Shown here: in pieces, positions 3,301-63,850 of the stretch
How the letters are laid out: the number at the start of each line of letters is the position of its first letter
Numbering within the stretch: position 1 is the first letter of the stretch
The notes under the pieces: generated by a model
The model's input: the letters and a program-made list of their open reading frames with translations, nothing else
Told to the model about the DNA's origin: nothing
Databases searched by the model: none
Program-made: the position numbers and the translations under genes
From: Patescibacteria group bacterium
GTDB lineage: Bacteria > Patescibacteriota > UBA1384 > CAJBMM01
Reading direction: 5' to 3'
DNA length: 64,000 nt
Assembly: GCA_041660565.1 (NCBI GenBank)
Contig: JBAZWC010000002.1
Location: 149,520-213,519, forward strand

Positions 3301-5147
3301 GGTTTAATCTCGTATAATTGGCTGTTAGGGTTATTTACTATTAATGTAGCGTGACTGATAAAATACTGCTCAAGGGCAATTCCGTTATCGGTATAAGCGC
3401 CCCAATTTTTTAAGTCAATAAACTTTTGGCGCAATCGCACGTCAACCGCCAGTAATTTGATCTTATTTTGGCTGATAAAACCGGCATAATCTGAATCGCT
3501 AGGGACGGCATAGGTGTAACTATTACCGTTTTCTAAATAATACTGAGCGGTGTGATTCCAAATATTCAACGTTACGACACCTTGATAATGATGGTTAATG
3601 TAATCCGTCACCAGTGCAAAATCGCCCAGCTTATAACGCAAATAGGCGCTTTCACCAATGCGCCCGGTGGCGTACGCCGCTTCTTCCACCTTAAATGTAT
3701 CATAAAATAGGGAATTTAGAATACGTCTGGTCGGAACAAAAGGATTTAGACTGTTAATTATCACTACCGCGATCAGAATAACTCCACCGACTTTGTAGGC
3801 AATCGGCTTTAGGTTTGACAAAGTGATGGCAGATAAAATTGATAGTACTACCAACGCCGGAAACAAAAATCGCTGTTGGTGACTAATGACAAAAAACCAC
3901 GCCACAATGTCGACTACGACCAAGGAAGACAATAGCAGTGTAGTGCGACGATTTTTAGGATTGAGAAGGGCAAACGGGGCGAAAAATGATGAAAAGATGA
4001 ATAGATTATAATATCCGGCGGTATTCTGCCAAAATATCTCCGGAATACGTAGAAAATTGGTCAACGTGCGCGGAACTGAGAAGTTTTTGATCGCCGCGTT
4101 TAAGGTATTAATTTCATTATCGGTATATCCCGGGTGAACCAAAATTAGCGGATAGGTGGGATTATGAAATACGATCCAGTTTTTGACGTACCAAAACCCA
4201 CCTACCAGCGCGGCGATTCCGGTAAAATACAACATAGTTTTAAGAAATTTCGCCGACCACTGACGACGAACCGTTAAGAATATTGCTACCACCACCACTG
4301 TGGTCAAAATACCATAAAAAGCCGAGTATTTGATTCCCGCTGCTGCCCCAAAAAAGAATCCGGATAACCAAATATAACGCTCGGATTTTGATTCAAGCCA
4401 CGCTGTCATCGATAAAATAGCCATTACCTCCATCACCGCCTCGCCTGCGTCGATGTAACCACTAGTGGCGTTCTCGATTAGTTGAGGCACAAAAAATATC
4501 AATATAGCAGCAATAAGGCCGGTATTGAGCGAATACCTCTTGTGCAAGAACCCAATAATTGCCACCATCATCGCCAAAAAGTAGCTAAAGTGCAGCAAAT
4601 GCATTAACGATACACCTTTAACCATCATTCCAAACGCAAAGAGGGTCTCCATGGATATTGGCAAATTGCCATAAAATTTCGACCCGCCTAGCGGCAAAAC
4701 GAATCCGGATTGATGAACGATGTAATTTGCTTCGGGTAAATGATAAGCCACCTCATCCCAGGCAGTGGCAGGCGCAAAACAAGCTAAAATGTTTACACCG
4801 GCTAAGATAATCAACGGGATAAGCAGCCATTTTTGTTTCTTAATTTCCGCTAAAATATTCCGGCGGTCTATGCGGCGTTTGCGCAGTTGTTTAATTTCGC
4901 CCAGAGCGACTAGAAACATCGCCACAGCGGCAATTGAAACAGTCCAGCCGTTAAACCACCTTAATATGCCCAAAAACTCAAGTAGGAGTACGAATATGGT
5001 CAAGCCAATAAGATACGAAGACGCGACGACAAACAACTTACTTTCGGGTAAATTAAATACCAACCGCCATACCCTTTGCCCCGCGAGTGTAACCACAGCA
5101 ATAAATAACAAAAAAATTGATAGGGTAATAAGCAAATTTAAGATCAT
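3297..5147 (-). CDS. GT-C fold membrane glycosyltransferase (ArnT/PMT, GT39/GT83-like).
   Basis: 616 aa with more than 10 TM helices in the N-terminal two-thirds and a soluble C-terminal domain. Loop motif 'WDEVAYHLPEA' carries the DE motif of the PMT/ArnT family. Confidence 0.5.
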   Translation of the reverse strand: MILNLLITLSIFLLFIAVVTLAGQRVWRLVFNLPESKLFVVASSYLIGLTIFVLLLEFLGILRWFNGWTVSIAAVAMFLVALGEIKQLRKRRIDRRNILAEIKKQKWLLIPLIILAGVNILACFAPATAWDEVAYHLPEANYIVHQSGFVLPLGGSKFYGNLPISMETLFAFGMMVKGVSLMHLLHFSYFLAMMVAIIGFLHKRYSLNTGLIAAILIFFVPQLIENATSGYIDAGEAVMEVMAILSMTAWLESKSERYIWLSGFFFGAAAGIKYSAFYGILTTVVVVAIFLTVRRQWSAKFLKTMLYFTGIAALVGGFWYVKNWIVFHNPTYPLILVHPGYTDNEINTLNAAIKNFSVPRTLTNFLRIPEIFWQNTAGYYNLFIFSSFFAPFALLNPKNRRTTLLLSSLVVVDIVAWFFVISHQQRFLFPALVVLSILSAITLSNLKPIAYKVGGVILIAVVIINSLNPFVPTRRILNSLFYDTFKVEEAAYATGRIGESAYLRYKLGDFALVTDYINHHYQGVVTLNIWNHTAQYYLENGNSYTYAVPSDSDYAGFISQNKIKLLAVDVRLRQKFIDLKNWGAYTDNGIALEQYFISHATLIVNNPNSQLYEIKP

Positions 5148-10058: not shown

Positions 10059-10330
10059 ATCTTTATAATGCCAAAAACCAGCTGAAATACAAGGACAGGA
10101 GAAATTGTCTTAATTGGAGTCATCGGAATTTGGAGTTTTTTACATAAATTCCGGGTACTTCTCGCAACCTTGCGGTTGGAGTCGTTAGTTCCTAAAGGAA
10201 CAATCAAGCCCGTAATGACAGTGATGGCGCTTGCAAAACGATTGATTTACTGTCATTATGACCTGTTCTGGGAGGGGCACAAAAAATAATTTTAAATTTT
10301 CAATTTGAAATTTTAAATTGGAGCCCCACC

Positions 10331-11176: not shown

Positions 11177-11254
11177 ATTTTTAATTTTAAATTTTAAAAA
11201 ATTCCAATCAGCCCAATTTATCCAATTTGACCAATTGACGAGCAAGGAAATTTT

Positions 11255-12667: not shown

Positions 12668-13908
12668 AAATTTCAAATTTAGTCGCCATTCTTCCTGGTC
12701 TAACCATCTTATATCTGATCAAGCTGACAATTTTCGGTTTACCTACCAATTGGTGGGAGATTTTGGTTTATCTGTGCGCGTTCGTCTTTCTCTTTATCAA
12801 AAAATCGACTCGACTTAAAAAATCCGAGATTGCATCAATTGCACTTATTACGCTCATAACACTTATCGCCACCTATACTTCGCCCGAGAAACGAGAGGCG
12901 CTGGGCATAATTAAAGGCTGGATTGTCCCGGCAATTTTGCTTTACTGGATGCTTAAAAACGCCTGGGCTGATCCAAAGAATATCACGCTGACTATAAAAG
13001 CGATGGTTTACCAAGGCATTTTAGTGGCGCTAGTTGCCATTTTGCAAACTATCCCCGCTATCTCCAACTGGTGGATTACTCGCGCTCCAGATTTAGCCCA
13101 ATATCTAAACACCGGGCGATACACTAGCATTTTTAACTCGCCCAATTCGGCGGCAATGATTTTAGCCCCAGCGTTAATTTTAGCTCTATATTGTCATTTC
13201 GACCCGGGGAGCTGGCTCGAGCGACCACGTTGGCCTCTGGCTCTACTAGCCGATAGGCTCGGAGAGAGAAATCTTAAGAAAGAATCCCTTCCTCTGCTTG
13301 CATCGCTAGTCATAATTATCGGATTGGTCCTAACCCATTCCCGCGGTGGCATCGTCGCGGCCATAATCGGGATTGCTCTACTAGCGCTCAGTCGATTCGA
13401 TAAAATCAGCCGAGCGTGGGCAGTGGTGATTGCCGCCTTGTCGTTACTTATTTTTAACCCCATTATTTTATCACTGTCGGCCTTAAACGACCCTAACCAC
13501 AGCGACATTCGCATTTTAATTTGGCAAAAAAGCTGGCAGATGGTGAGTCAGCACCCAATTTGGGGTATCGGGCTAGGCCATTTTCATCAAGCTTTCGCCT
13601 CCTTCACCCTACATCAGCCTAACTTTGACGAATTTATTACACCTTATGCTCTTCACCCTCATAACGTGATTTTATACGTTTGGTTGAGCTTCGGGATAAT
13701 TGGGTTAATTGGACTAATTGGGTTGATTGGAGCTTCGGTTCGAGCGTTTTTACGAGACAAATCACCGTTACGCGCGTTAGGTTTTGCCTTGCTAGTAGTG
13801 ATGCTGACTCAGGGTATGGTAGATACTACAATTTTTAAAAACGATCTGATAATTTGGTTTATTATTGCGGTTTTATTAACATTCAGACAGTCGGAAAACA
13901 CAAAATGA
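12664..13908 (+). CDS. O-antigen ligase-like membrane protein, paralog of the previous gene.
   Basis: 414 aa, multi-TM. 'LTHSRGGIVAAIIGIALL' motif. Contains an in-frame 9-bp x 3 tandem repeat (GLIGLIGLIG) and a GC-rich internal patch. Confidence 0.5.
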   Translation: MKISNLVAILPGLTILYLIKLTIFGLPTNWWEILVYLCAFVFLFIKKSTRLKKSEIASIALITLITLIATYTSPEKREALGIIKGWIVPAILLYWMLKNAWADPKNITLTIKAMVYQGILVALVAILQTIPAISNWWITRAPDLAQYLNTGRYTSIFNSPNSAAMILAPALILALYCHFDPGSWLERPRWPLALLADRLGERNLKKESLPLLASLVIIIGLVLTHSRGGIVAAIIGIALLALSRFDKISRAWAVVIAALSLLIFNPIILSLSALNDPNHSDIRILIWQKSWQMVSQHPIWGIGLGHFHQAFASFTLHQPNFDEFITPYALHPHNVILYVWLSFGIIGLIGLIGLIGASVRAFLRDKSPLRALGFALLVVMLTQGMVDTTIFKNDLIIWFIIAVLLTFRQSENTK

Positions 13909-30579: not shown

Positions 30580-30630
30580 ACAAAAAAGGATTGAGTATTT
30601 AATCAATCCTCTATTCTCCACATTCCAAAT

Positions 30631-30773
30631 TGGCTTGCCATTCCGAAGCGCTAGCGAAGGATGGCGGAGAGGTATCCTACGCAAATGCTACGGAATACCA
30701 ATTCTCCTTTTCCTTCACTAATCGCTCCAAAATGGCTTGCCATTCCGAAGCGTTAGCGAAGGATGGCGGAGAG
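30631..30773. repeat. Right arm of the 112-bp inverted repeat (30662-30773) plus a 41-bp tandem partial copy (30631-30671).
   Basis: Arm 30662-30773 is the reverse complement of 29239-29350. The sequence 'tggcttgccattccgaagcg(c/t)tagcgaaggatggcggagag' occurs at 30631-30671 and again at 30733-30773. Confidence 0.85.
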
Positions 30774-30853
30774 GGTGGGATTCGAACCCACGAGGAGCTT
30801 GCACCCCTGACAGTTTTCAAGACTGCTGCACTAGACCACTATGCGACCTCTCC
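30764..30853 (-). tRNA. tRNA-Ser (anticodon TGA), type II.
   Basis: The reverse complement reads GGAGAGGTCGCATAGTGGTCTAGTGC...CTTGAAA (anticodon TGA)..., a long variable arm, ...GGGTTCGAATCCCACCCTCTCCGCCA. Confidence 0.85.
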
Positions 30854-32293: not shown

Positions 32294-34069
32294 TCAGCGC
32301 TTCACCGGCGCCAGCGTCATCGTCCCACCCGGGACTAGTTTGGCGCCAAGGTTGACCGATCGCGGTGTTGACGGTCCCGACCCGTCCTTGTCTAGCAGTT
32401 GGAACCGCTTATGGGACGAGAACGGCCGATTGGCGCTGTCAGTACCATTCACCCACAGGTCAATGGTCTTGGCATGGGAATCGTACGATGTGTTTCCATA
32501 CGAATTCCAGTACTTGTCGAAAGTACACCCGATGAGCGGCAACGCATACTCGCCGTCTCGCGGCACCGTTATGTCAACCAGCGTCCGGGTATCTGGGAAA
32601 TACCCGCCGAAGAAATTGGTAGCGTACCACTGCCTCCAATATTCGGTTCCGCTCCGGTTGGAGGTTTTGAAGATGATCTCGTTAACATGGTAAGGTGCAC
32701 CGACCGTTTGCCCTCCCAACAGGTCAACGTAATAGTTCCAGCCGCTGTCAGTCGGCTTGCCGTAGTTGGTGCCGATAACAGTGATAGATGGGCCATTATT
32801 CAGCTTGGTGGCGATCAGTAAGTCAATCAACTTGTTGCTTAGACTGACGGACCAGAAATCCGTATGACCGCAACCCCACCTCCGGCTCGTATCGCGCGGC
32901 CCAAGCGTTGCTCCATCGGGCAGATGAGCGGCGCTCCCCACGGTAACAAACTGGTCATTGGTCCCACCAACCGTGTAGTATGACACGCTGTTCAGATGAT
33001 TGGTCGGGTAGTCCAGATCGTGGATGAAAGTGGACCAAGTCAGCATCTGCGTGATCGATAGCGCGATGGACTTGAGGCTGGACCACTGGCAGTCGGCGCT
33101 TTCCGGATTCATCACAGCGTCGTCACGCAGGGCAGTCAGAATCACATCAGCTTGTAACGACCCTGCGTTAGGTGTGGCCAACATGACCAGTTCTTGGACA
33201 TGATTCGACGCCCTATCTGACAGGTCAGTGTCTTGCTCAAGAGCGTAGCGAGACACCAAACCGCCCATAGAATGGGCAATCATGACGACCCGCTGTTCTT
33301 TTGGTTGTAGTTTGAGTAGGCGATTCAGCTCTTGTGCGTTCAGTGTGATATCGATCGCCCATGGATATTCGAAGGCATAAACCGCCTTGAATCCCCCTTG
33401 ACTGACAAGCGCCTGAGCAGTTGACTTCAGTTTGGAAGCGTCAGTCCACATACCGTGTACTAGCAACGCCACTCGACCGGTCGACGGGAAGACATGAGCG
33501 TCTCCTGTACCTGCAAGTAGCGAAATCTGGCAGACGGTTTCCTTTTGGTCAGAAAACGCAAGCAAGACGCCGTAGATGATAAACTGCGCCACGCCGCGGC
33601 TGGAGGATGACACTGGCATGGCAATCGTGGCCTTGCCGCCGGACTCGGTAACGTCTGCCCACTTCCACGTGGTACCATCAGACAAACGATACGCGCCCAC
33701 CAACACCGTGTTGGCTGGGTGAGTTGATGGCATGGACACAGTTGCCACACCATCGTTCACCGTCGTCGCCGTCTTGGCTTCGAACGCCAGTATCGGATTC
33801 GGAGCCGATGGTGGTTTGGACGGGATTGACGCGCCCTTGTACACCGTCGCGGTTACCGTGCCATTGGCATTCAACACGCCCGATGGGACAGAGACCGAGA
33901 CGCCGGTTGCACCTACATCAATCGTACCACCCGACGGAGTCATATCCTTGGTCACCGAGAACTTGTTCGACGCTGGCGGGGCGGGCGTTCCGCCTCCTCC
34001 ACCGCCACATCCAGACAACGTCGGCGCTGTGAACAACACGCCGATCAAGCAGACCCACGAAAGCTTCAT
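32294..34069 (-). CDS. Lipoprotein with alpha/beta-hydrolase (lipase-like, GxSxG) domain, encoded on a GC-rich island.
   Basis: 591 aa. Lipobox 'TLSGC' followed by a poly-Gly linker. 'IAHSMGGLV' nucleophile elbow. The DNA is markedly GC-richer than its surroundings. Confidence 0.5.
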   Translation of the reverse strand: MKLSWVCLIGVLFTAPTLSGCGGGGGGTPAPPASNKFSVTKDMTPSGGTIDVGATGVSVSVPSGVLNANGTVTATVYKGASIPSKPPSAPNPILAFEAKTATTVNDGVATVSMPSTHPANTVLVGAYRLSDGTTWKWADVTESGGKATIAMPVSSSSRGVAQFIIYGVLLAFSDQKETVCQISLLAGTGDAHVFPSTGRVALLVHGMWTDASKLKSTAQALVSQGGFKAVYAFEYPWAIDITLNAQELNRLLKLQPKEQRVVMIAHSMGGLVSRYALEQDTDLSDRASNHVQELVMLATPNAGSLQADVILTALRDDAVMNPESADCQWSSLKSIALSITQMLTWSTFIHDLDYPTNHLNSVSYYTVGGTNDQFVTVGSAAHLPDGATLGPRDTSRRWGCGHTDFWSVSLSNKLIDLLIATKLNNGPSITVIGTNYGKPTDSGWNYYVDLLGGQTVGAPYHVNEIIFKTSNRSGTEYWRQWYATNFFGGYFPDTRTLVDITVPRDGEYALPLIGCTFDKYWNSYGNTSYDSHAKTIDLWVNGTDSANRPFSSHKRFQLLDKDGSGPSTPRSVNLGAKLVPGGTMTLAPVKR

Positions 34070-38615: not shown

Positions 38616-39191
38616 CTAGATAACTTGTAGGACGTCTGTTAGTTGTTTGATCCGGATGATGTTTTTGTGATCTGAAACGCCATGGTTCCACGGCCTGTCA
38701 AACAGCAACACCCTCACCCCGGAATTGGCGCATTTCTCTGCCCATTCCGGCGAATCGTCAATTATCAGATCAACTTTTTCACGTAAACAAACATCGTTTT
38801 TCTCTCCTCGTGCGTTACCGTCATTAGAAAAATGATGGGTCAAAATAATCTTAGAGAATCGTTGTGGAAAATGGCTGTCTAACCAGCTTGTAGTCTCAGC
38901 GGTTAACTGTGTTGGACGGGAAGTGATAACAATTAATTCGTGATCTTTTGATAATTTTTCCACCACGTCGACCGCTTTGTTCTGAGGTTGCAATGACTTA
39001 AGACTGCCCGATTGGTAAAACTTAAATACCTTATCGACTATCTCTGCGTGAGGGCGCTTGAACAACGGCTGTAAATCGTATTCAAGAACGTCTGATAATA
39101 CAAAACTCGTGCCGTCGTTTTCGTTGCAGTAGCGCAAAAACTCAGACACAAAGTCGGTTAGCACATCATCAAAATCAAAAGCAATTTTCAT
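38616..39191 (-). CDS. HAD-superfamily 5'(3')-deoxyribonucleotidase-like phosphatase.
   Basis: 191 aa. 'MKIAFDFDDVL' is the HAD motif I (DxD) at the N-terminus; length and architecture are NT5C-like. Confidence 0.5.
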   Translation of the reverse strand: MKIAFDFDDVLTDFVSEFLRYCNENDGTSFVLSDVLEYDLQPLFKRPHAEIVDKVFKFYQSGSLKSLQPQNKAVDVVEKLSKDHELIVITSRPTQLTAETTSWLDSHFPQRFSKIILTHHFSNDGNARGEKNDVCLREKVDLIIDDSPEWAEKCANSGVRVLLFDRPWNHGVSDHKNIIRIKQLTDVLQVI

Positions 39192-39209
39192 AAAGCCATA
39201 TTAGCACAT

Positions 39210-39785
39210 TTAGGAAACGCCGGCCTCATCTTCCGAGTTAATCTGATGAAAATACTTCATTACGGATTCTCCAATAATGTCTAGGTCCGTCAATAATTCT
39301 TCGCGATCATCTTTTGGATCAATAATTCCTTTTGCCTGCGATGGAGATAAAATATAGTAAATCGGCATATCCATAGATGTATTGGCGCTATAAACTTCAA
39401 TAAGCCACGGGAATTTCTTGTGTACAGTTCGCCTATAAACTACTTCGATGATATCCTTTAATAATTGTTTATCGTCGCAAGCAAACCAAATTACTGGTAA
39501 TTCCTCGCCGTGACCCTCACAAGATTCTACGGTTATAAGACCGTTGTTTGTCAACACCTGACAAATTCTTTTCATTGGTTCGTCTGTGATTGGTAAGTTC
39601 AGTTCAATATCTCTGTACCGCTGAACTGATTTCTCGGTTTCCGCTCTGTATTGCGCAATTCCCTCCGGGGACCATCTTTCATCACATATTCGACTAACAA
39701 TTAAGTCAGCACTAATTCTTGGCTTTACGCCTGATTGACCAACCTCGGATTCGCCTGAGATATATTCATTCATTTGTGACTCCAA
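39210..39785 (-). CDS. Hypothetical protein, flanked by 33-bp direct repeats.
   Basis: 191-aa ORF, no motif recognised. Identical 33-bp sequences at 39183-39215 and 39793-39825 bracket it. Confidence 0.3.
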   Translation of the reverse strand: MESQMNEYISGESEVGQSGVKPRISADLIVSRICDERWSPEGIAQYRAETEKSVQRYRDIELNLPITDEPMKRICQVLTNNGLITVESCEGHGEELPVIWFACDDKQLLKDIIEVVYRRTVHKKFPWLIEVYSANTSMDMPIYYILSPSQAKGIIDPKDDREELLTDLDIIGESVMKYFHQINSEDEAGVS

Positions 39786-39828
39786 ATGATTTAATTTTCA
39801 TAAAGCCATATTAGCACATTTAGGATTG

Positions 39829-39866
39829 TTAGGGGATTTGGGGGGATTGGGGGCTTTTGGGAAGTG
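39829..39866. repeat. G-rich half-element of the same family.
   Basis: 'aggggatttggggggattgggggcttttgggaagtg' between the 33-bp direct repeat and tRNA-Ser(CGA). Confidence 0.55.
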
Positions 39867-39906: not shown

Positions 39907-39996
39907 TGGCGGAGACGAGAGGATTTGAACCTCTGAAGGGCTTGCACCCTTACCGCGTTTCGAATGCGGCGCAATCAACCACTATGCGACGTCTCC
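39907..39996 (-). tRNA. tRNA-Ser (anticodon CGA as read), type II.
   Basis: The reverse complement reads GGAGACGTCGCATAGTGGTTGATTGCG... anticodon loop TTCGAAA ... long variable arm ... GGTTCAAATCCTCTCGTCTCCGCCA, with G73 discriminator. One mismatch in the anticodon stem. Confidence 0.7.
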
Positions 39997-40251
39997 ATTT
40001 AACTTCGTTATTATATCACGATATTGCTGTTTTAGTAACCGCTTCCCCTCAGTCGTTTTTAGAAATCTTTCGCGCCTCTGTGCATCGGTTTTAAGCGCGT
40101 AGCACTCGTACCCGATTAAGGTTAATGGTCGCTTGAATTTTGTCGACGTTACGCCACCTTGATTATGTTGACCAACGCGTCTTTTTAAATCGCTGGCACT
40201 ACCAGTATAAATATGACTGTCGTTTTGCATTAAAAAATAAACATAGTACAT
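39982..40251 (-). CDS. GIY-YIG nuclease-domain protein (YhbQ/UPF0213-like).
   Basis: 89 aa. 'YYVYFLMQNDSHIYTGSASDLKRRVGQHNQG' is the GIY-YIG signature. The last ~20 codons run through a duplicated segment and 15 nt of the tRNA-Ser(CGA) 5' end, so the functional CDS probably ends earlier. Confidence 0.55.
   Translation of the reverse strand: MYYVYFLMQNDSHIYTGSASDLKRRVGQHNQGGVTSTKFKRPLTLIGYECYALKTDAQRRERFLKTTEGKRLLKQQYRDIITKLNGDVA
39984..40043. repeat. About 60-bp direct repeat, copy 1: tRNA-Ser(CGA) 5' end plus upstream flank.
   Basis: 'atgcgacgtctccatttaacttcgttattatatcacgatattgctgttttagtaaccg' recurs at 40433-40492 with two mismatches. Confidence 0.8.
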
Positions 40252-40325
40252 GGCTTCATAATTTTACCGCATTTCGCCCTATCATTCGATAGCGCGCCCT
40301 GTCGCATGACAGGGCGAAACCGGAG

Positions 40326-40351
40326 CACTAGGCCACTATGCGACCTCTCCA
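40326..40351 (-). pseudogene. tRNA-Ser 5' fragment (pseudo-tRNA) followed by a cloverleaf-like palindrome.
   Basis: The reverse complement 'GGAGAGGTCGCATAGTGGCCTAGTGC' matches the first 26 nt of tRNA-Ser(TGA) at 30764-30853, then diverges into nested palindromes with no T-arm. Confidence 0.4.
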
Positions 40352-40432
40352 GATAACAGTTAACATTTAACTTGAAACAATTAACAGGATCGACAAGGGA
40401 AAATAAGGGATTGCGATGGATTCCACAAAGGG

Positions 40433-40492
40433 ATGCGACGTCTCCATTTGACTTCGTTATTATATCACGATATTGCTGTTTTAGTAACCGTT
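40433..40492. repeat. About 60-bp direct repeat, copy 2 (displaced tRNA-Ser 5' end plus flank).
   Basis: Near-identical to 39984-40043. Lies at the left edge of the GC-rich patch 40500-40920. Confidence 0.8.
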
Positions 40493-40518
40493 TCTTCCTG
40501 GCTTGATTTGTTTCGACT

Positions 40519-40914
40519 TTGCGCATAAAATCAATTCGGAGCAACACTGTCTCAGAGGAGATAACGATGCAGATGATTGGAGACGTGAATCTGCTATCGC
40601 AATACTCGGGTTACGGCAACCTGCTAGCCCATCTAAGGAACCTCCCAGAAATGCTGGAGTTATACAGCGGTTACTGTTTCGAGAAGGGAAGCCGTGGCAG
40701 GGGAAATGGGCAAGCATCATCACCGCTTGCTGGGAGTAACATTTGGCTTGCGGACGAAGACGAGTGCGTCATCATTTGCCAAGCCGAGAGAGGCCGCGGC
40801 GCGCTGGTAATCCGTGTCTACACGCTTAACCATGGTTCGAAGTGTCTTAGTCAGCGCATTTGGCAGATCATTCATCAGCACAACCTGCCTTACGCCATCA
40901 CTGGCTCGCCGTAA
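40519..40914 (+). CDS. Hypothetical protein on a small GC-rich island.
   Basis: 131-aa ORF in a roughly 420-bp GC-rich patch immediately beside the tRNA-Ser fragments. Confidence 0.3.
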   Translation: MRIKSIRSNTVSEEITMQMIGDVNLLSQYSGYGNLLAHLRNLPEMLELYSGYCFEKGSRGRGNGQASSPLAGSNIWLADEDECVIICQAERGRGALVIRVYTLNHGSKCLSQRIWQIIHQHNLPYAITGSP

Positions 40915-41021
40915 AAGCGGGCCAGCTATTTTTTTATTCAATTAACAGGGTGCTTTTAGATATTTAGGAATTAGACATTTTTCTATATAGATTCAAAGGT
41001 CTTGCCCGGAATGACAGGTGA

Positions 41022-41861
41022 TTATTTTTTCTTCACCGTAACCGTAACGCCGCCTTTTTTCTTCTCCACCTTCACCGGGGCAGATGAAGTGGGCGCACTC
41101 GAGGTTGTTTTTTCGGCTTTATCAATTGTCTTTTCAGTTCGGGTGGCTTCTTTTTGCAGCTCTTGAAGCGTCAAACCCTGTTTTTTAAGCACATATTGCT
41201 GTTGAGCCACGCCAAACAAGTTGGTCACCGCCCAGTAAAGCGGCAGGGCGGCCGGCAAACTACGGGCAATTATTAAGGTGATTAACGGCGCCAAATAAAT
41301 CATTTGTTTCGAAAACGCCGCTGTTGGATCGTCTGGATTGTTGTTCGGGATAAAGGTTACTTTGGTTTGCCAGTACTGAGTTAGCCCGGCAATGATAGGT
41401 AAAATGTACAGATCTGGTTTAGCTAGATTGATGCCAAAAAAGTTAGTATTTACGTCTGACGGGCGCAAGGTGAACGAATAGAGCTGATCAAAATGCGCGG
41501 TAGTTAAACCGTTACGGAAGACTTGGTACAACACCACCAAAATTACCAGCTGTACGATCATCGGCAAACAACTTGAGAACGGGCTAACGCCCTCTTCTTT
41601 ATACAGCGCCATTAACGCCTGAGACTGCAGAGCTTTGTCTTCTTTGTGCTTAGCGCGTAGCTCGTCTATCTTTGGTTGCAGCAATCTCATTCTCACCTGA
41701 ACCCGAGCGGTGTGAACTGTAACCGGCAAAAGTACGATGCGGATTATTAAGGTAAGAATGATGATAGCCCATCCCAGCTCGTGTCCCGGCATAATTGCCA
41801 TCAAAAATACCAAAAAATTGAACATTGGTGTGTATAAAATGGTGGTGAATAATTTGATCAT
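41022..41861 (-). CDS. yidC: Membrane protein insertase YidC (short, Gram-positive/CPR type).
   Basis: 279 aa, five TM helices with a 60-kDa_IMP-like core and a lysine-rich C-terminal tail. Conserved position yidD-yidC. Confidence 0.8.
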   Translation of the reverse strand: MIKLFTTILYTPMFNFLVFLMAIMPGHELGWAIIILTLIIRIVLLPVTVHTARVQVRMRLLQPKIDELRAKHKEDKALQSQALMALYKEEGVSPFSSCLPMIVQLVILVVLYQVFRNGLTTAHFDQLYSFTLRPSDVNTNFFGINLAKPDLYILPIIAGLTQYWQTKVTFIPNNNPDDPTAAFSKQMIYLAPLITLIIARSLPAALPLYWAVTNLFGVAQQQYVLKKQGLTLQELQKEATRTEKTIDKAEKTTSSAPTSSAPVKVEKKKGGVTVTVKKK

Positions 41862-41876
41862 TGTTGTCCTTAAATT

Positions 41877-42134
41877 TTATGGAACTGGATCGTGGCCAAC
41901 CTCGTGCCAAGGGTTACATCTTAAAATTCGGGCCGTTCCCAATCGTACGCCCTTAACAATACCATATTTTGCCACTGCCTGATAGGTGTATTGGCTGCAC
42001 GTTGGGGTAAACCGACAAACGCCACTGGGATAAAATACCCTTACCCAGCTGTGGTCAGGCGACAAAGTGTACTGATAGATAACGATCAGCATCAATACAA
42101 TTTTCCGTGGCAAAAGATATATTTTTTTTAACAT
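41877..42134 (-). CDS. yidD: Membrane protein insertion efficiency factor YidD.
   Basis: 85 aa. 'YQYTLSP...CRFTPTCSQYTYQAVAKYG...RCNPWH' is the YidD (haemolytic-domain) signature. Confidence 0.8.
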   Translation of the reverse strand: MLKKIYLLPRKIVLMLIVIYQYTLSPDHSWVRVFYPSGVCRFTPTCSQYTYQAVAKYGIVKGVRLGTARILRCNPWHEVGHDPVP

Positions 42135-42140
42135 ATAGTT

Positions 42141-42262
42141 ATAAATTCGAAACTCGAAGCACGAAATAAATTCGAAAGTTCAAAATCAGAAATTCAAATT
42201 TTTGGATTTTTTTATTTTTTGTACTTGTTTCGGATTTCGGATTTAGTGCTTCGTGCTTAAAC
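42141..42262. repeat. About 100-bp AT-rich dispersed intergenic element, copy B (yidD-rnpA spacer).
   Basis: 'aaattcgaaactcgaagcacgaaataaattcgaaa...aaattcaaatttttgga...tcggatttcggatttagtgcttcgtgcttaaa'. Confidence 0.65.
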
Positions 42263-42589
42263 TTTTTGGATTTGCCCAAAAAGTTCCATGCACTCTTGCT
42301 TAATATCCACACCGGCGCCGTAGTTGCTAACATAAACACACAAATCGAATGCTAGAGCTGGATTATCTTTGATAAATTGATCAAATTGAGCACGAATTTG
42401 GCGCTTGACTCTGTTACGATCCGTGGCGTGCTTGATGGTTTTAGTGCCCACGATAACCGTGAATCTAATGTGCCCGGAGCGATTTGGTAAAATTTGGATA
42501 CGTAAATTGCGCCCGGACAGCTTTTTGCCTTTTTGCTGTACCCGACGCACATCGCGGTTACTTTGCAATCGATATTTTCGACTGACCAT
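42257..42589 (-). CDS. rnpA: Ribonuclease P protein component.
   Basis: 110 aa, basic. 'RLQSNRDVRRVQQKGKK' RNase P protein motif. Immediately downstream of rpmH. Confidence 0.8.
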   Translation of the reverse strand: MVSRKYRLQSNRDVRRVQQKGKKLSGRNLRIQILPNRSGHIRFTVIVGTKTIKHATDRNRVKRQIRAQFDQFIKDNPALAFDLCVYVSNYGAGVDIKQECMELFGQIQKV

Positions 42590-42598
42590 TATTAGATC

Positions 42599-42733
42599 CT
42601 ACACAGTTAACTTAGCGCGACCTTTGTTTCGACGTCTTTGTAGTACGTTTTGACCGTCTTTATTGGACATACGCGCCAAAAAGCCGTGATCCTTTTTAGA
42701 TTTGACGTTCTTGTGTTTATAATTTAGAAACAT
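42599..42733 (-). CDS. rpmH: 50S ribosomal protein L34.
   Basis: Hand-translated 44 aa: [44 protein letters not shown]. Missing from the ORF track because it is under 60 aa. Confidence 0.85.
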
Positions 42734-42758
42734 TACATTGCTCCGCTGTTGTTTGTCT

Positions 42759-42794
42759 TAAAATATCACGTTTCGGCTAAAAAAGCAAACGGCG
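42759..42794. repeat. 36-bp direct repeat, copy 1 (left boundary of the GC-rich rpmH-dnaA island).
   Basis: 'taaaatatcacgtttcggctaaaaaagcaaacggcg' recurs at 43809-43844 with one mismatch (g/a). Confidence 0.8.
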
Positions 42795-42847
42795 ACCCCC
42801 TACAAGTAGAAGGCCGCCGAATTGTGTCTTCATGCCGATTCCTTAGC

Positions 42848-43255
42848 CTAACTCTCTGCCACCGTCACCAAGATGGCATTGCAGCCCTGGTACTTCACAA
42901 ACAGAACGTCGTTGAACGCAATGTCGACGGCATGGAGGCCGCCCCCGATCGGGGAACAGTCAGCAAAGTGAAGCCATTTCGGTCCCCGATAGAATCGCAC
43001 CCTCCATCGTTCTCCGTCGAGACGAACTATGCGCATTTTGTTGTGTTCGTTGATGGCCTGGTAGGCATCCTCCGGAAATACGGCCTTGATTGCCGGCCAC
43101 CAGCCATCAACATGGTCGTCGTTGACCTGCCTCAGACGAACCAGGACCGCGCCTGCTGGAATAAGCGCGTCGCGAACCGCTGCCCTGATCTTCATGTGCA
43201 CGTACGCTAGAAATACAACAGCCAGCGCCGCCGCAATCCAGAAACTCGCGTGCAT
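42848..43255 (-). CDS. Hypothetical membrane-anchored protein on the GC-rich rpmH-dnaA island.
   Basis: 135 aa. N-terminal TM helix (FWIAAALAVVFLAYV). GC-rich coding sequence. Confidence 0.3.
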   Translation of the reverse strand: MHASFWIAAALAVVFLAYVHMKIRAAVRDALIPAGAVLVRLRQVNDDHVDGWWPAIKAVFPEDAYQAINEHNKMRIVRLDGERWRVRFYRGPKWLHFADCSPIGGGLHAVDIAFNDVLFVKYQGCNAILVTVAES

Positions 43256-43267
43256 CTCACCGCCCTC

Positions 43268-43939
43268 CTAGAGCTTCGGTAGATAGCTGGAAACCACGAT
43301 GCGGTCGCAACCGCACTCCGCTGCTAGCCGTAGACAGTTAGCGGTAATACGAGCCCCGCCAAGAGTCATTGGCGCATACTCAGCGTTGCTTTCGTCTAGG
43401 TACACTATGGTCGCGTCGCCCCGCTTGAACTCCACAACGACCTTAAGATATGATCGCTTGGCAAAGACATGCAACGCGTACTCCCCAGACACACAACTAG
43501 TCTCAAAGGAGGACTGAAGGGTGAATTGCTCGGGCGGGAAGAGACTCCTAATCCGTCCCCAGCACTCCTCACAGACACGCCCCTGAGTCAGACAATCACA
43601 GTCAAGGTCGATCGGCTCGTCCATCAGCCGCTTCTTGCGACCCCGACCTAGTGTCAAAGCAGCGCCGAATGCGATGACACAGATCGCCGCGAAGGCCACA
43701 CTCAAAACCCCGATCCCGATCACCAAAGGCACATCCACGGTCACTTTCGTAACCTTTCTGCCCCCAAATGGGCGGTATATGTTGTCAGGTACTGCGCTAT
43801 CAGATTGATAAAATATCACATTTCGGCTAAAAAAGCAAACGGCGGCCTTACTGTAATGGAAGACTGTCCATCCCCCATCCCCTATAGATACTATGCATCT
43901 AAGAGCCAAAAACTCACAGATTGAGGCTCTATTTACCAT
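43268..43939 (-). CDS. Hypothetical membrane-anchored Cys-rich protein on the GC-rich rpmH-dnaA island.
   Basis: 223-aa ORF. Central TM helix (LVIGIGVLSVAFAAICVIAF), then 'DLDCDCLTQGRVCEECWGR'. The true start may be an internal Met. Confidence 0.3.
   Translation of the reverse strand: MVNRASICEFLALRCIVSIGDGGWTVFHYSKAAVCFFSRNVIFYQSDSAVPDNIYRPFGGRKVTKVTVDVPLVIGIGVLSVAFAAICVIAFGAALTLGRGRKKRLMDEPIDLDCDCLTQGRVCEECWGRIRSLFPPEQFTLQSSFETSCVSGEYALHVFAKRSYLKVVVEFKRGDATIVYLDESNAEYAPMTLGGARITANCLRLAAECGCDRIVVSSYLPKL
43809..43844. repeat. 36-bp direct repeat, copy 2 (right boundary of the GC-rich rpmH-dnaA island).
   Basis: 'taaaatatcacatttcggctaaaaaagcaaacggcg'. AT-rich sequence resumes immediately after it. 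Confidence 0.8.
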
Positions 43940-43957
43940 CTTCCAAATATGCTATGC

Positions 43958-43966
43958 TGTGGATAA
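43958..43966 (+). promoter_or_regulatory. Consensus DnaA box (TGTGGATAA) in the dnaA upstream region.
   Basis: Perfect 9-mer TGTGGATAA lies 14 bp upstream of the dnaA start. Confidence 0.5.
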
Positions 43967-43979
43967 CTTTTAAGGCGAG

Positions 43980-45359
43980 GTGATTATGATCGACAACGAA
44001 AAATTATGGCAAACCGCTCTGGGAGAGTTTGAGGTTAGCTTAAGTAAAGGCAACTACACCACCTGGTTTAGGGGCTCGTTTATTTATAAAATTGATGATC
44101 ACTTGGCCACGATAGGCGTATTCAATAACTTCTCTCTTGAATGGCTGCGGAAGAAATTTCATCAGCAGATTATTGATACTCTTAACAAGCTAACCAAAGG
44201 ACAGGTTACCGAAGTTGAATACATGGTGGCTAGTAAAGACGAGCAGCCAAAGCACATCAATAGTTCTCCACTTATCAACAACCCTGTGGATAAAAAAGCG
44301 ACCCCTGTTAACCCAACATTAACACCGTTGAGCAAACCGCAATTGAACGCGAAATACACCTTTGACCACTACATTGTCGGCAACAGCAACCGCATGGCAC
44401 ACGCCGCCGCCGAAGCAGTAGCAGACAATCCCGGCCACGCTTACAACCCGTTATTTATTTGGGGTGGCGTTGGTTTGGGAAAAACTCACTTAATCCAAGC
44501 TATCGCGCATCGTGTGTTGCAAAAAGACAGCAATAAGAAGGTGGTCTATACCACTTCGGAACAGTTTACTAACAGCTTTGTAGATTCATTAAGAAAAGGT
44601 AAAGCGAACGAATTTAAGCACCTTTATCGGGGCGTCGACGTTCTTATCATCGACGATATTCAATTTATTGCCGGCAAAGAAGCGGTGCAAGAGGAATTTT
44701 TTCACACCTTTAACGCCCTGCACCAACAAAACAGTCAGATCATTATCACTTCTGATCGAATCCCCAAAGCCATTCCCACATTAGAAGATCGCTTGTCATC
44801 TCGCTTCGAAATGGGATTGATTGTGGATATCAATTTACCCGATGTCGAAACCAGAACCGCTATTATTAAATCTGCATGCGAAGAAAAGGGATTTGAGATT
44901 ACCGATGAAATCGTGAATTATTTGGCGGTTAGAATATCGCGGAATATTCGCGAAATCGAGGGAGCAGTAAACCGATTGGTAGCTTATTGTGGATTAAGCA
45001 ACATTGAGCCAACCGAAGCTTTAATCGAATCCACCTTACAGCAATATCTAAACAACGAAGAAACCAAACAAGTAACCGCCAACAAAATCATCAAAATGGT
45101 TGCATCGTTTTATAACATCACCGTTGATCAGATTTTGGGCCAACGTCGCACCAAAGACTTGGTGCACCCTCGCCAGGTAGCAATGCACTTACTTAGATCA
45201 GAACTAAACATCTCATTACCAAACGTAGGCAAAGAGATGGGTGGTAAAGATCATACTACGGTAATGTATGCCTGTAATAAGATTGAAAAAGAATTGCTTA
45301 AAAACAATACACTTCAACAAGAAATAGCTACTTTGAAAGAAAGATTGTATTCGGTATAG
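43980..45359 (+). CDS. dnaA: Chromosomal replication initiator DnaA.
   Basis: 459 aa. Walker A 'GGVGLGKTHL', 'VLIIDDIQF' Walker B, and the C-terminal DNA-binding domain 'HPRQVAMHLLR...GGKDHTTVMYACNKI'. Confidence 0.9.
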   Translation: MIMIDNEKLWQTALGEFEVSLSKGNYTTWFRGSFIYKIDDHLATIGVFNNFSLEWLRKKFHQQIIDTLNKLTKGQVTEVEYMVASKDEQPKHINSSPLINNPVDKKATPVNPTLTPLSKPQLNAKYTFDHYIVGNSNRMAHAAAEAVADNPGHAYNPLFIWGGVGLGKTHLIQAIAHRVLQKDSNKKVVYTTSEQFTNSFVDSLRKGKANEFKHLYRGVDVLIIDDIQFIAGKEAVQEEFFHTFNALHQQNSQIIITSDRIPKAIPTLEDRLSSRFEMGLIVDINLPDVETRTAIIKSACEEKGFEITDEIVNYLAVRISRNIREIEGAVNRLVAYCGLSNIEPTEALIESTLQQYLNNEETKQVTANKIIKMVASFYNITVDQILGQRRTKDLVHPRQVAMHLLRSELNISLPNVGKEMGGKDHTTVMYACNKIEKELLKNNTLQQEIATLKERLYSV

Positions 45360-45593
45360 ACATTAATATTATTTAATTAATATACCTAGTAGTAATAATA
45401 AGGGATGTTAATAGCGGGGATAAGTGGTATTTTAATCTTGATAATACCGGTAAAACGTCTAAAAACTCTGGGGAAAATAAAGGATAAGTTGGGTAGTTTT
45501 GCACAGGTTAGCGGTATTAACAAGATCAGGAAAATCTCTGTGGAAAACAATAAGAGTAATTAAATAATTATCAACAGGCAAAAAGGAGATAAA
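45360..45593. promoter_or_regulatory. Candidate oriC (dnaA-dnaN spacer) with an AT-rich unwinding element and degenerate DnaA boxes.
   Basis: AT-rich 'cattaatattatttaattaatata...' at 45360-45400. DnaA-box-like 9-mers 'tgtggaaaa' (45539-45547) and 'ctggggaaaa', and 'ggataag' repeats inside two similar ~30-bp units. Confidence 0.45.
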
Positions 45594-46700: not shown

Positions 46701-46792
46701 GGGCAGTTAGGGGGGGGCTTAGGGAGATTTGGGGCATTGGGGGAACCGTTGGCTCTCCCAATCACCCCAATGTCCCCAATCCCCCTAATAGG
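46698..46792. repeat. G-rich/C-rich imperfect palindromic intergenic element of the TTAGGG/TTGGGG...CCCCAAT family.
   Basis: 'ggggcagttagggggggcttagggagatttggggcattgggggaacc...tcccaatcaccccaatgtccccaatccccctaatagg' in the dnaN-recF spacer. It shares 'aatcaccccaatgtccccaat' with 63821-63845. Confidence 0.7.
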
Positions 46793-47869: not shown

Positions 47870-47950
47870 GGGTGGTTTGGGAAGTTAGGGGTGTTGGAAA
47901 AGCCGATGGTCTACCAACCGCCCAAACTACCCCAACGACCCTAACCGTCT
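47860..47950. repeat. G-rich/C-rich palindromic intergenic element (same family).
   Basis: 'ggggcgtaagggtggtttgggaagttaggggtgttgg...ccaaccgcccaaactaccccaacgaccctaaccg' downstream of recF. Confidence 0.65.
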
Positions 47951-48039
47951 TAGTTGACAAAAACTGGCAAAAAGTGTATAACCTAGTCAGCTAGGTTCTT
48001 TAAGATTGGCCCAAACCGTTGGGCCATTAACCGCCTCTT

Positions 48040-48645
48040 GTGGGGCAGAAAGAGACAGGGCTGACCATGTCTGATGACATGCTCGGCAAGGTTGTAAAGA
48101 AGCTCGCGAAGGTCCCCGAAATGTGGGGGTTGATCGACGACCTTCTGACGAAGATCGAGAATCCTGATATGCTCGCGGCCATTAAGCAGTGTTTGCGCGG
48201 GAGTAATCCTTGGCCGCGCACGCGGCGAGAACTGCTGCAGGCCTGCGCTAACGCTGGCATTTCGTTGTTTGGTGGGAGCGTTGAGTCGGCGGACCACGAA
48301 GGCCAACAGCTTCCGATCAGGGGTGATCTACCAGAGCTGCTGCGCGACTTCGACGAGGTCCTCCGATTGCAGGAACAAGGAAAATCGCCAGTCGACCCGA
48401 TCTTAGGTCAGCCTGACGATGACAACTGCCGACTGCTAAGTGTCGAAGAGACTCTCGTGGTTATTCTGGCGTGGTTTCGCAAGAACAAGCGGGCGCCGGA
48501 TAGAGTTGTTTATCTGAGGTGCCGCAACACCTGCGGCCGCGGCTTCTCGCTCCTCGTCTACTGGGGCCCCGATGACGGGCTGTGCGTCCGCTGGTACGGC
48601 AATGGCAATCGCGTTTCGGACGCCGGTGGGCTGCTCAGGGCGTGA
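48040..48645 (+). CDS. Hypothetical protein on a GC-rich island.
   Basis: 201-aa ORF. DNA is GC-rich relative to its flanks. Inserted between recF and the DUF721-like gene. No motif recognised. Confidence 0.3.
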   Translation: MGQKETGLTMSDDMLGKVVKKLAKVPEMWGLIDDLLTKIENPDMLAAIKQCLRGSNPWPRTRRELLQACANAGISLFGGSVESADHEGQQLPIRGDLPELLRDFDEVLRLQEQGKSPVDPILGQPDDDNCRLLSVEETLVVILAWFRKNKRAPDRVVYLRCRNTCGRGFSLLVYWGPDDGLCVRWYGNGNRVSDAGGLLRA

Positions 48646-48656
48646 CGGGGGACATG

Positions 48657-48692
48657 ACGGGTGTGGTGCAAGATGCACCGCACCCGTTTTCA
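48657..48692 (+). terminator. Rho-independent terminator candidate.
   Basis: GC-rich imperfect hairpin 'gggtgtggtgcaagatgcaccgcaccc' followed by 'gttttcatt'. Confidence 0.5.
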
Positions 48693-48722
48693 TTATCAAA
48701 AATAATCAGATAGAATCAAGCC

Positions 48723-48992: not shown

Positions 48993-49110
48993 TTCCAAAT
49001 TTCCAATCAAGCCAATTTATCCAATTTGGCCAATTGGATTTTTTTTATACAGATTTCTCCAACAGCTCGACAAGGCTCGCAGGGTCGAAATGACAGGCTG
49101 TGGCATTGGC

Positions 49111-62501: not shown

Positions 62502-63041
62502 TCATGATTGTTCGTATCGCCGATCGACGACCTTGTTTGTCGCTGGATCAACGATTATATACAGCACCTCAAGCACGGTGTGCGGGTCAGCGGTGCGATA
62601 TACGTCATATGGTACCCACACAAGCCCGCCGACCACCTTGGAGTCCTGGGTTCTCGAGCGCCCACTGAACTTATCCAGTCCGAACTTGGATGTGCCGCCG
62701 GTCAGGAAATCGGATGGGCTGAGCAATGCAAGCGACTTAGCGAACTCGGACGACATGTACTGAGTCGCGGCGTCGAAGGCAGCGGTGTCGGCGTCGCCCC
62801 ACCTGACGTTGTTCATCATCGTGATGGCGGCTTGAATTGCTGGGAAGTACTGGCTGTTCGATCCGACCGGCTGGTCGAAAACGACTTGATTGGTCGTTGA
62901 TGGTGCAGTTGTCGTGCGTGGCATGAACATTACTGCTAGCACAAGCAACACCGCACCGATGCTGATCCCGCCGGCGGCTTGAAAGACCACGGGCGGAATG
63001 CGGGAGCTGCTGACGCTCCCATGAGGATGTGCGACGGACAT
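62502..63041 (-). CDS. Hypothetical membrane-anchored protein on a GC-rich island.
   Basis: 179-aa ORF. TM (ISIGAVLLVLAVMFM). GC-rich DNA bounded by AT-rich flanks. Confidence 0.3.
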   Translation of the reverse strand: MSVAHPHGSVSSSRIPPVVFQAAGGISIGAVLLVLAVMFMPRTTTAPSTTNQVVFDQPVGSNSQYFPAIQAAITMMNNVRWGDADTAAFDAATQYMSSEFAKSLALLSPSDFLTGGTSKFGLDKFSGRSRTQDSKVVGGLVWVPYDVYRTADPHTVLEVLYIIVDPATNKVVDRRYEQS

Positions 63042-63789: not shown

Positions 63790-63850
63790 AAGGGTAATTG
63801 GGGGTTCTTATGTTCCCCCAATATCCCCAATCACCCCAATGTCCCCAATT
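63762..63850. repeat. G-rich/C-rich palindromic intergenic element (same family).
   Basis: 'tagggattttagggagattagggtcataagggtaattggggg...cccccaatatccccaatcaccccaatgtccccaattgg'. The G-rich half encodes the first residues (MTLISLKSL) of the upstream TPR-like ORF. Confidence 0.7.

Follow-up and report, generated by a model that had tools for sequence, protein, structure and literature searches.

The described systems that come closest to the locus considered here are the CIMEs, the morons and PeSLs of phages, and the genomic islands of Patescibacteria. CIMEs are decayed integrative elements that are flanked by attachment (att) sites and carry no integrase. Phage morons are autonomous units of promoter, gene and terminator that sit between conserved genes (PMC3594210). 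In T4-like phages, ORFans stand between PeSLs, which are composite promoter-early/stem-loop motifs; recombination of the PeSLs sets the ORFans free as minicircles and needs less than 50 bp of homology (PMC2839356; PMC4122927). For Patescibacteria, DNA uptake via pili and competence genes has been proposed and horizontal gene transfer is documented (PMC12455944). Here we examine a stretch of 64 kb (the window; mean GC content ~43%; all coordinates are window positions) from an NCBI/JGI metagenome-assembled genome labelled 'Patescibacteria group bacterium', where it is part of a contig of 374,447 bp (locus tags WC773_*). Between rpmH, which encodes ribosomal protein L34, and the divergent dnaA, the window contains an insert with two open reading frames (ORF A and ORF B) that is bracketed by direct repeats. 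We consider it fairly probable that a foreign insertion has duplicated the rpmH promoter at this site and forms an autonomous unit of promoter, genes and terminator.

The evidence for an insertion comes from the relatives. In the four nearest ones (DnaA 66-68% identical), yidC-yidD-rnpA-rpmH and dnaA-dnaN-recF are collinear with the genes on the two sides of the insert, and the rpmH-dnaA spacers measure 171, 331, 150 and ~79-157 bp and hold no ORF. The spacer in the window measures 1246 bp, or 196 bp when the insert and one repeat are subtracted. Because the spacers of the relatives are short and ORF-free, and the window without its insert comes down to 196 bp, we read the insert as a lineage-specific insertion. 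This agrees with the first-pass annotation, made from the sequence of the window, which had supposed the insertion to be absent from relatives; the same two ORFs at a host-like GC content, which it had named as a sign to the contrary, are not seen in the four nearest relatives. No species- or genus-level relative is present in the collections searched, where the GTDB representatives reach 47-50% DnaA identity and the best match anywhere 68%; the exact L34 protein is found on two contigs only, both with the filled site. In the ~20 sampled genomes of the Candidate Phyla Radiation (CPR), the spacer ranges from 141 to 344 bp. Among 64 other genomes sampled with a divergent rpmH/dnaA arrangement, the spacer is 117-1037 bp except in two, a Paenibacillus and a Thermoanaerobacterales metagenome-assembled genome, which are unrelated Firmicutes-type genomes and carry GntR-type regulators and transporter/kinase genes between rpmH and dnaA (L073 3541-5363 and L032 1212-5157; GntR and a DUF5808 protein in one, GntR/FCD, a GntP permease and an FGGY kinase in the other). 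At this junction, gene insertions are therefore rare but have precedent, and its earlier description as one of the most conserved intergenic regions in bacteria does not make it inviolable.

The composition of the insert also sets it apart. The GC content of 42798-43808 is 56% against ~43% for the window, as had been claimed for the ~1 kb between the repeats, and the GC step falls at the repeat edges. Both ORFs have a normal coding periodicity, with GC at codon positions 1/2/3 of 0.64/0.40/0.67 for ORF A and 0.59/0.45/0.65 for ORF B, which places their third-position GC (GC3) ~0.2 over the window mean of 0.47 (sd 0.07). These observations bear on a reading in which ORF A and ORF B have long belonged to the spacer and the sampled relatives have lost them, the repeat being an unrelated local promoter duplication. 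The relatives are distant (at most 68% DnaA identity), so that such a loss is formally possible, but the raised GC3, the exact coincidence of the GC step with the repeat boundaries, the lack of homologues in any database searched and the shortness of all the sampled CPR spacers make it highly improbable.

An abrupt shift of composition at repeats, in a metagenome-assembled genome, could also come from an assembly artefact, in which a GC-rich contig of another organism was chimerically joined through a shared repeat. A Logan assembly of SRR18595301 (L081, 4219 bp), made independently of the JGI/NCBI contig, is however 100% identical to window positions 40461-44679 and crosses both junctions and the insert, although the two assemblies possibly share reads. 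The longest exact match common to the two repeat copies is 24 nt, which is below the usual assembly k-mers. Because the Logan assembly is identical and only 24 exact nt are shared, a repeat-mediated misassembly is very unlikely. The foreign organism would, in addition, have to bear the same 39-mer at both ends of its fragment, and the terminator described below is built jointly from nucleotides of the insert and of the repeat. We give this artefact hardly any credence.

The next question is what the repeats are. They are 39 nt long with 2 mismatches, and contain an inner core of 36 nt (42759-42794 and 43809-43844) with 1 mismatch; the core is the repeat reported earlier, whose positions, single mismatch and start 25 nt upstream of the rpmH ATG (42733) are all reproduced. 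A matching repeat is found in 0 of 100 dinucleotide-preserving shuffles. Within the 64-kb window there is no third copy, the next-best match to the 39-mer being 23/39, which is at chance level, and there is no sign that the 36-mer belongs to a common repeat family, a possibility that had been raised. A 24-mer scan of metagenome and viral contigs gave no match to the repeat, but missed the source contig as well. On the minus strand the repeat reads GGyCGCCG-TTTGCTTTTTT-AGCCGAAAyG-TG-A-TATTTT-A, and its GC content is 36%. In copy 1, it provides a -35-like TTGCTT (42788-42783), a spacer of 17 nt and an extended -10 TG-A-TATTTT (42768-42760; TGATATTTT). This is the single TGnTAnnnT motif upstream of rpmH, the first gene of the rpmH-rnpA-yidD-yidC cluster, and it lies 26 nt before the ATG. 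Three relatives (L082, L086 and L087) have exactly one such motif, at 25, 25 and 31 nt, in rpmH-upstream sequences that are otherwise unalignable with the window. Because the single -10 motif has a like geometry in the three relatives, we take the repeat to be the rpmH core promoter, as judged from its conserved position and its consensus; the suggestion that the repeat includes rpmH promoter sequence is thus borne out by the -10 motif at its conserved distance. Ahead of the -10, copy 2 reads TGTG, copy 1 CGTG and the relatives TATG. Copy 2 is found 65 nt ahead of ORF B, where its promoter is placed such that it can drive ORF B and ORF A.

At the other end of the unit, the genes run into a predicted intrinsic terminator. 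Its RNA folds with -27.5 kcal/mol (z = -4.5), a value equalled in 0 of 200 shuffles. The insert contributes the 5' arm, the loop and the first 5 nt of the 3' arm; the last 8 nt of that arm belong to copy 1. The promoter-distal 8 nt of copy 1 (GGTCGCCG) and TTTGCTTTTTT double in this way as the 3' arm and the T-tract of the terminator. Copy 2 has no hairpin 5' arm in its context and is unstructured (z = -0.3). The chance of an 8-nt complementarity at a fixed junction is ~1e-4; with the pairing so improbable by chance, a passive fill-in duplication of the target site does not account for the repeat. This leaves two possibilities, a joint at a pre-existing (micro)homology between the terminator of the foreign DNA and the resident GGCCGCCGTTT, or an incoming DNA that brought the whole module. 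A transposon target-site duplication was rejected on the same pairing of its first 8 nt with the insert's own hairpin arm, and on its length of 36-39 nt. An insertion sequence (IS), transposon or miniature inverted-repeat transposable element (MITE) was rejected as well: there is no transposase, and the best terminal inverted match is 5 nt, which is reached in 297 of 300 shuffles. In L082 (a contig of 1.04 Mb), a small GC hairpin GGGC-TTAT-GCCC is found on the minus strand at ~4860-4900, directly upstream of the rpmH -35, which hints that a stem-loop beside the rpmH promoter is possibly ancestral in the lineage.

With promoter, genes and terminator in place, the locus can be compared with the morons. 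Like these, the insert has a predicted promoter (copy 2) and a factor-independent terminator, lies between genes that are adjacent in relatives, deviates in composition from its flanks, and carries cargo without a role in the flanking functions. In contrast to morons, it sits in a bacterial core chromosome (rpmH and dnaA) and not in a phage or prophage, so that it is moron-like and not a member; its promoter duplicates that of the neighbouring host gene and was not imported with the cargo, and direct repeats lie on both sides of it, whereas morons are not defined by such repeats.

The PeSLs share with the insert ORFan cargo between directly repeated regulatory sequences, which in copy 1 of the insert comprise a terminator stem-loop immediately upstream of a sigma-70-type promoter, an expression of the neighbours that would be undisturbed, and a short homology that could permit excision as a small circle. 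Following this likeness, a Campbell-type integration can be considered, in which a circle with ORF B, ORF A and a terminator-promoter module nearly identical to the resident rpmH promoter region integrated reversibly through 36-39 bp of short homology. Copy 1 is a composite of stem-loop and promoter as in the PeSL architecture, a circle with the entire module would place the 3' arm of the terminator within the repeat, and the two mismatches fit parental sites that were not identical. PeSLs, however, are a conserved family with many copies in one phage genome, whereas the repeat has two copies in the 64 kb; copy 2 has the promoter and the 3' arm but lacks the 5' arm of the stem-loop; the longest exact identity between the copies is that of 24 nt; and two neighbouring inserts, described below, have unrelated repeats. 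A cassette of 56% GC must moreover already bear 39 bp of the 36%-GC promoter of the host, which merely defers the primary event. PeSL recombination and minicircles have been shown experimentally in phages; the insert sits in a cellular chromosome. We regard Campbell-type integration as the main rival to the mechanism proposed below, though an unlikely one that still requires an earlier primary event.

The likeness to CIMEs lies in the near-identical direct repeats that bracket foreign DNA and in the lack of a recombinase inside, although such repeats are not specific to that family. The repeats would then be the attL and attR of a decayed integrative element (a CIME-like remnant of a prophage, an integrative and conjugative element or an integrative and mobilizable element) that was later shrunk to 1 kb by deletions, with its recombinase now lost or encoded elsewhere and with an att site overlapping the rpmH promoter. 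For this speak the att-like length of the repeats around DNA that is absent from relatives, and the presence in this genome of what may be a classic att-like scar, a 49-nt pair at the 3' end of tRNA-Ser(tga) (30624/30726). The insert, however, has no integrase or recognisable mobile-element gene: no recombinase or transposase is found among its ORFs by Pfam, PHROG, PADLOC or NCBIfam (recombinases in the rest of the genome lay outside this survey), which agrees with the earlier reading of the ORFs. It is also unmatched in phage and plasmid collections, and forms a compact, complete unit, whereas a remnant would look ragged. The repeat is a promoter and not a tRNA or the 3' end of a gene, and the two adjacent promoter-duplicating inserts, with unrelated repeats of 33 and 58-62 nt, would demand three separate site-specific systems in all. 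An integrative remnant therefore appears improbable to us. The first-pass annotation had left a choice between attL/attR and a promoter duplication; the promoter duplication stands, as the repeat holds the rpmH promoter, and the att sites are disfavoured by the lack of an integrase and by the unrelated repeats of the neighbours.

The insert resembles the islands of Patescibacteria (PMC12455944) in being DNA of a CPR genome that is atypical in composition and specific to its lineage. It differs in being far smaller (1 kb, two genes) and in its promoter duplication and hybrid terminator, and direct repeats are not mentioned for those islands. The insert falls outside the moron, PeSL, IS/MITE and integrase-borne element families. 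We would class it as a small islet that a CPR chromosome has acquired horizontally, and whose promoter-duplicating architecture is unusual.

For the integration itself we put forward, only tentatively, a recombinase-independent, duplicative illegitimate insertion of taken-up DNA. One joint would have formed at the GC-rich microhomology GGyCGCCGTTT (GGTCGCCGTTT) between the foreign terminator and the resident site, and the rpmH core promoter, 36-39 bp of the resident sequence, would have been duplicated in the event. The ancestral site would be expected to hold one repeat copy, as ...ACAGTAA-GGCCGCCG...TATTTTA-AGACAAAC.... After the insertion, the dnaA-proximal copy would transcribe ORF B and the coupled ORF A, and the hybrid terminator, made of the insert end and of the first 8 nt and the T-tract of copy 1, would stop this transcript. 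The rpmH-proximal copy, which partly overlaps the T-tract of the terminator, would start rpmH-rnpA at the ancestral distance. On the other side, dnaA would keep its DnaA box and putative extended -10, with the divergent promoter still at its ancestral distance. Because the duplication preserves both promoter contexts, the insertion would be near regulation-neutral for two essential loci, and being nearly neutral for rpmH and dnaA it would be tolerated. An effect on the regulation of the two genes, which had been suspected, is unlikely, as both keep their original promoter-proximal contexts. The spacers are short and mostly promoter, so any duplication of 30-60 bp would cover the promoter, and an insertion without duplication between a promoter and its gene would kill in the case of rpmH-rnpA or of a tRNA.

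We turn now to the two further inserts, which lie within 3.6 kb of this one and whose repeats, though unrelated, likewise duplicate the extended -10 together with the beginning of the minus-strand gene that lies downstream. A perfect 33-nt repeat (39183-39215 and 39793-39825) brackets the insert 39216-39792 and holds the extended -10 TGCTAATAT, located 6 nt before the ATG, together with the first 9 nt of an NT5C-like gene (38616-39191). A -10 only 6 nt before the ATG implies that the NT5C-like gene would be transcribed without a leader. Between these repeats, the 191-aa minus-strand ORF 39210-39785 has a host-like GC content and no Pfam or NCBIfam match. The other repeat, of 58-62 nt with 1-2 mismatches (39984-40045 and 40433-40494), holds TGATATAAT and the first 13 nt of tRNA-Ser(cga); the Logan contig L081 terminates within it. 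It brackets a small GIY-YIG nuclease gene (39982-40251), which has its C-terminal codons in the repeat, and a 5' fragment resembling tRNA-Ser (40315-40357), of which the first 26 nt match tRNA-Ser(tga) at 25 of 26 positions. This unit looks like a nuclease cassette that repeatedly targeted tRNA-Ser 5' regions. Because three inserts carry three different repeats, we favour a general duplicative process over site-specific recombination. There are 4 repeat pairs of this kind in the 64-kb window, while comparable loci totalling 973 kb have 0.72 per 64 kb, a rate that includes some paralogous coding sequences. A repeat upstream of dnaA in another locus (L026) was rejected as a second case, as it lies in paralogous pilin-like coding sequences. 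Separately, the 49-nt direct repeat in the window (30624-30672 and 30726-30774; 2 mismatches) has copies 102 bp apart, of which copy 2 consists of the last 11 nt of tRNA-Ser(tga) and 38 nt downstream, and is an att-like scar or a small tandem duplication.

A bolder possibility, to which we attach little weight, is that the three inserts in 4.7 kb are the footprint of an undescribed, recombinase-independent gene capture at extended -10 promoters in Patescibacteria. The inserts lie upstream of rpmH, tRNA-Ser(cga) and the NT5C-like gene, have unrelated repeats of 33-62 nt, and would bring foreign or shuffled genes. The newcomer would gain a host promoter while the resident keeps its own, which would be the counterpart, on a cellular chromosome, of PeSL/moron shuffling in phages. 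The GIY-YIG nuclease, whose gene lies in mid-cluster, might stimulate the process.

Several points weigh against a foreign insertion with a duplicated promoter, or against parts of it. The promoter and terminator activities are predictions based on consensus, and a strict sigma-70 scan does not call the repeat as a promoter, its -35 matching at 3 of 6 positions. The hairpin could be ancestral, with a promoter-led cassette placed upstream of it, which is an alternative decomposition of the locus. The two mismatches of the repeat could reflect the age of the insertion or heterologous parents equally well. The microhomology is inferred from one side, the donor not having been found. The empty site cannot be reconstructed at the nucleotide level, because the spacers of the relatives at 66-68% align at the DnaA box alone; of the spacer comparison with related genomes that had been called for, the absence of the insert holds and the recovery of a single-copy empty site does not. 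Single-sequence AlphaFold models of the ORFs have a pLDDT of ~48 and are unusable, and lend no structural support to a function. The core reading rests on one genome.

If the promoter-duplicating insertion is true, it offers a view at base-pair level of how a streamlined CPR bacterium adds orphan genes beside two constrained loci with neither harmed: a copied promoter expresses both resident and newcomer, and a supplied terminator insulates them from each other. The signature recurring at neighbouring sites suggests a testable general route of gene gain where mobile-element machinery is scarce.

The two genes of the insert are arranged as a pair. The GTG of ORF B is preceded by the ribosome binding site AGAAAGG, and the AGGAGG Shine-Dalgarno of ORF A overlaps the stop codon of ORF B, so that we take ORF B and ORF A to be translationally coupled. 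According to the hydropathy, each protein has a single N-terminal transmembrane helix, consistent with the earlier description of two membrane-protein ORFs on the rpmH strand. In ORF A the helix is followed by basic residues and a domain of ~105 aa; in ORF B by GRGRKKR and a domain of ~120 aa, and ORF B carries a C-x-C-x7-C-x2-C cysteine cluster. By the positive-inside rule, a basic cluster after a transmembrane helix puts the remainder of the protein in the cytoplasm, and the domains of ~100-120 aa are accordingly predicted to face the cytoplasm.

Database searches with the insert give little to compare. Among 5.8 billion proteins, the homologues of ORF A and of ORF B (P0001) are limited to the proteins themselves, and an exhaustive HMMER search of 1.84 billion representatives with ORF B gives low-identity matches to internally repetitive proteins only; three of these (P0123-P0125) were rejected because their scores are inflated by internal repeats. 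Searches of both ORFs against Pfam, NCBIfam, PADLOC, PHROGs and PDB are empty or at noise level. A PHROG holin match of ORF A (E = 0.0014) was rejected, as it covers the transmembrane helix alone. With blastn and tblastn, the insert has no genuine match, and no donor, in phages, plasmids and IMG/VR; a phage tblastn match of ORF B (MT836766) is spurious, being antisense to a histidine kinase gene. Paralogy was rejected too, since the two ORFs are dissimilar to each other and to the other GC-rich ORFs of the window. There is no Rfam match in the insert, including the leader of ORF B, at E up to 1, and the leader has no significant RNA structure. An accessory membrane-associated role (exclusion, defence) or an envelope function for the two proteins is a guess, and explicitly an unsupported one.

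On the dnaA side, TGTGGATAACTT is the sole conserved block in the alignment of the rpmH-dnaA spacer with the relatives, and the perfect DnaA box noted earlier is present and conserved among them. NCBI places the start of dnaA at ATG 43986, which gives a protein of 457 aa. In the window and in L082, L086 and L087, the rpmH-dnaA spacer has one DnaA box, beside dnaA, whereas the dnaA-dnaN spacer (30-42% GC) has 6-7 boxes at no more than 2 mismatches. The cumulative GC skew has its minimum at 44-45 kb. The dnaA-dnaN spacer, which is ~1.5 kb away from the insert, is the most probable replication origin (oriC). Because the cluster of DnaA boxes lies there, the insert would flank the origin without interrupting it, and the claim of an insertion across the presumptive origin is not upheld. 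The finding leaves the knowledge of replication origins unchanged. The features of the locus are collected in Table 1.

Table 1. Positions of the features at the rpmH-dnaA junction (window coordinates).
Feature	Position	Strand	Basis
rpmH (ribosomal protein L34)	42599..42733	-	Pfam PF00468, E = 3.6e-17; ORF list
Direct-repeat copy 1, predicted rpmH core promoter	42759..42797	-	repeat scan; position and consensus
Predicted intrinsic terminator of the cassette: 13-bp stem, 4-nt loop, then TTTGCTTTTT	42790..42819	-	terminator scan, RNA fold
ORF A, 135 aa (MFA6082466.1, WC773_03595, hypothetical protein)	42848..43255	-	ORF list, NCBI
ORF B, 158 aa, GTG start at 43744	43268..43744	-	ORF list
ORF B 5' untranslated leader, promoter-proximal end of the foreign DNA	43745..43808	-	sequence
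Direct-repeat copy 2, predicted second copy of the rpmH promoter, upstream of ORF B	43809..43847	-	repeat scan; position and consensus
dnaA promoter-proximal region: putative extended -10 TGCTATGCT, then perfect DnaA box TGTGGATAA (43958-43966)	43949..43966	+	spacer alignment
dnaA	43980..45359	+	Pfam Bac_DnaA, E = 3.7e-72
dnaA-dnaN spacer, likelier oriC	45360..45593	.	30% GC, 6 DnaA-box-like sites at no more than 2 mismatches

The window contains other GC-rich stretches. A moron-like unit at ~47940-48700 (59% GC, GC3 0.70) is located between recF and a DciA-like gene (only 158 bp separate the two in one relative) and has a TTGACA-17-TATAAC promoter, no flanking direct repeat, a 201-aa ORF without a Pfam match (48040-48645) and a strong hairpin terminator at ~48658-48690. 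The ORFs 62502-63041 (minus strand, GC3 0.68) and 40519-40914 (plus strand, GC3 0.61) have no Pfam match. At 32294-34069 (minus strand, GC3 0.65 against a host mean of ~0.46-0.47), a 591-aa alpha/beta-hydrolase (DUF7379/PGAP1-like) with a lipoprotein-like N-terminus is encoded. Around these other GC-rich islands, no shared end motifs or direct repeats of at least 9 nt are found, except for an 11-nt match flanking 40519-40914. The mutually unrelated GC-rich ORFs suggest repeated acquisition from GC-richer donors, among which the insert between rpmH and dnaA is one of several, set apart by its position and its clean repeat.

Two kinds of short periodic sequences are also found. Arrays of 3-4 CCAAT units with a period of 9 nt occur at 11204-11236, 13699-13730 (minus strand), 39837-39861 (minus strand), 46757-46780, 49003-49035 and 63817-63849; the sequence CCCAATCACCCCAATGTCCCCAAT, for example, is identical at 46757 and 63826. 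At least 4 of the arrays are intergenic, for example between dnaN and recF, and one is located just upstream of a repeat copy, at 39826. AT-only periodic motifs (AAATTTTAAATTTTAAATT-like) are present in 9 copies with 69-100% identity, at 10285, 11167, 20580, 27807, 29464, 34788, 58323 and 60953 among others, and might be terminator or promoter-upstream elements.

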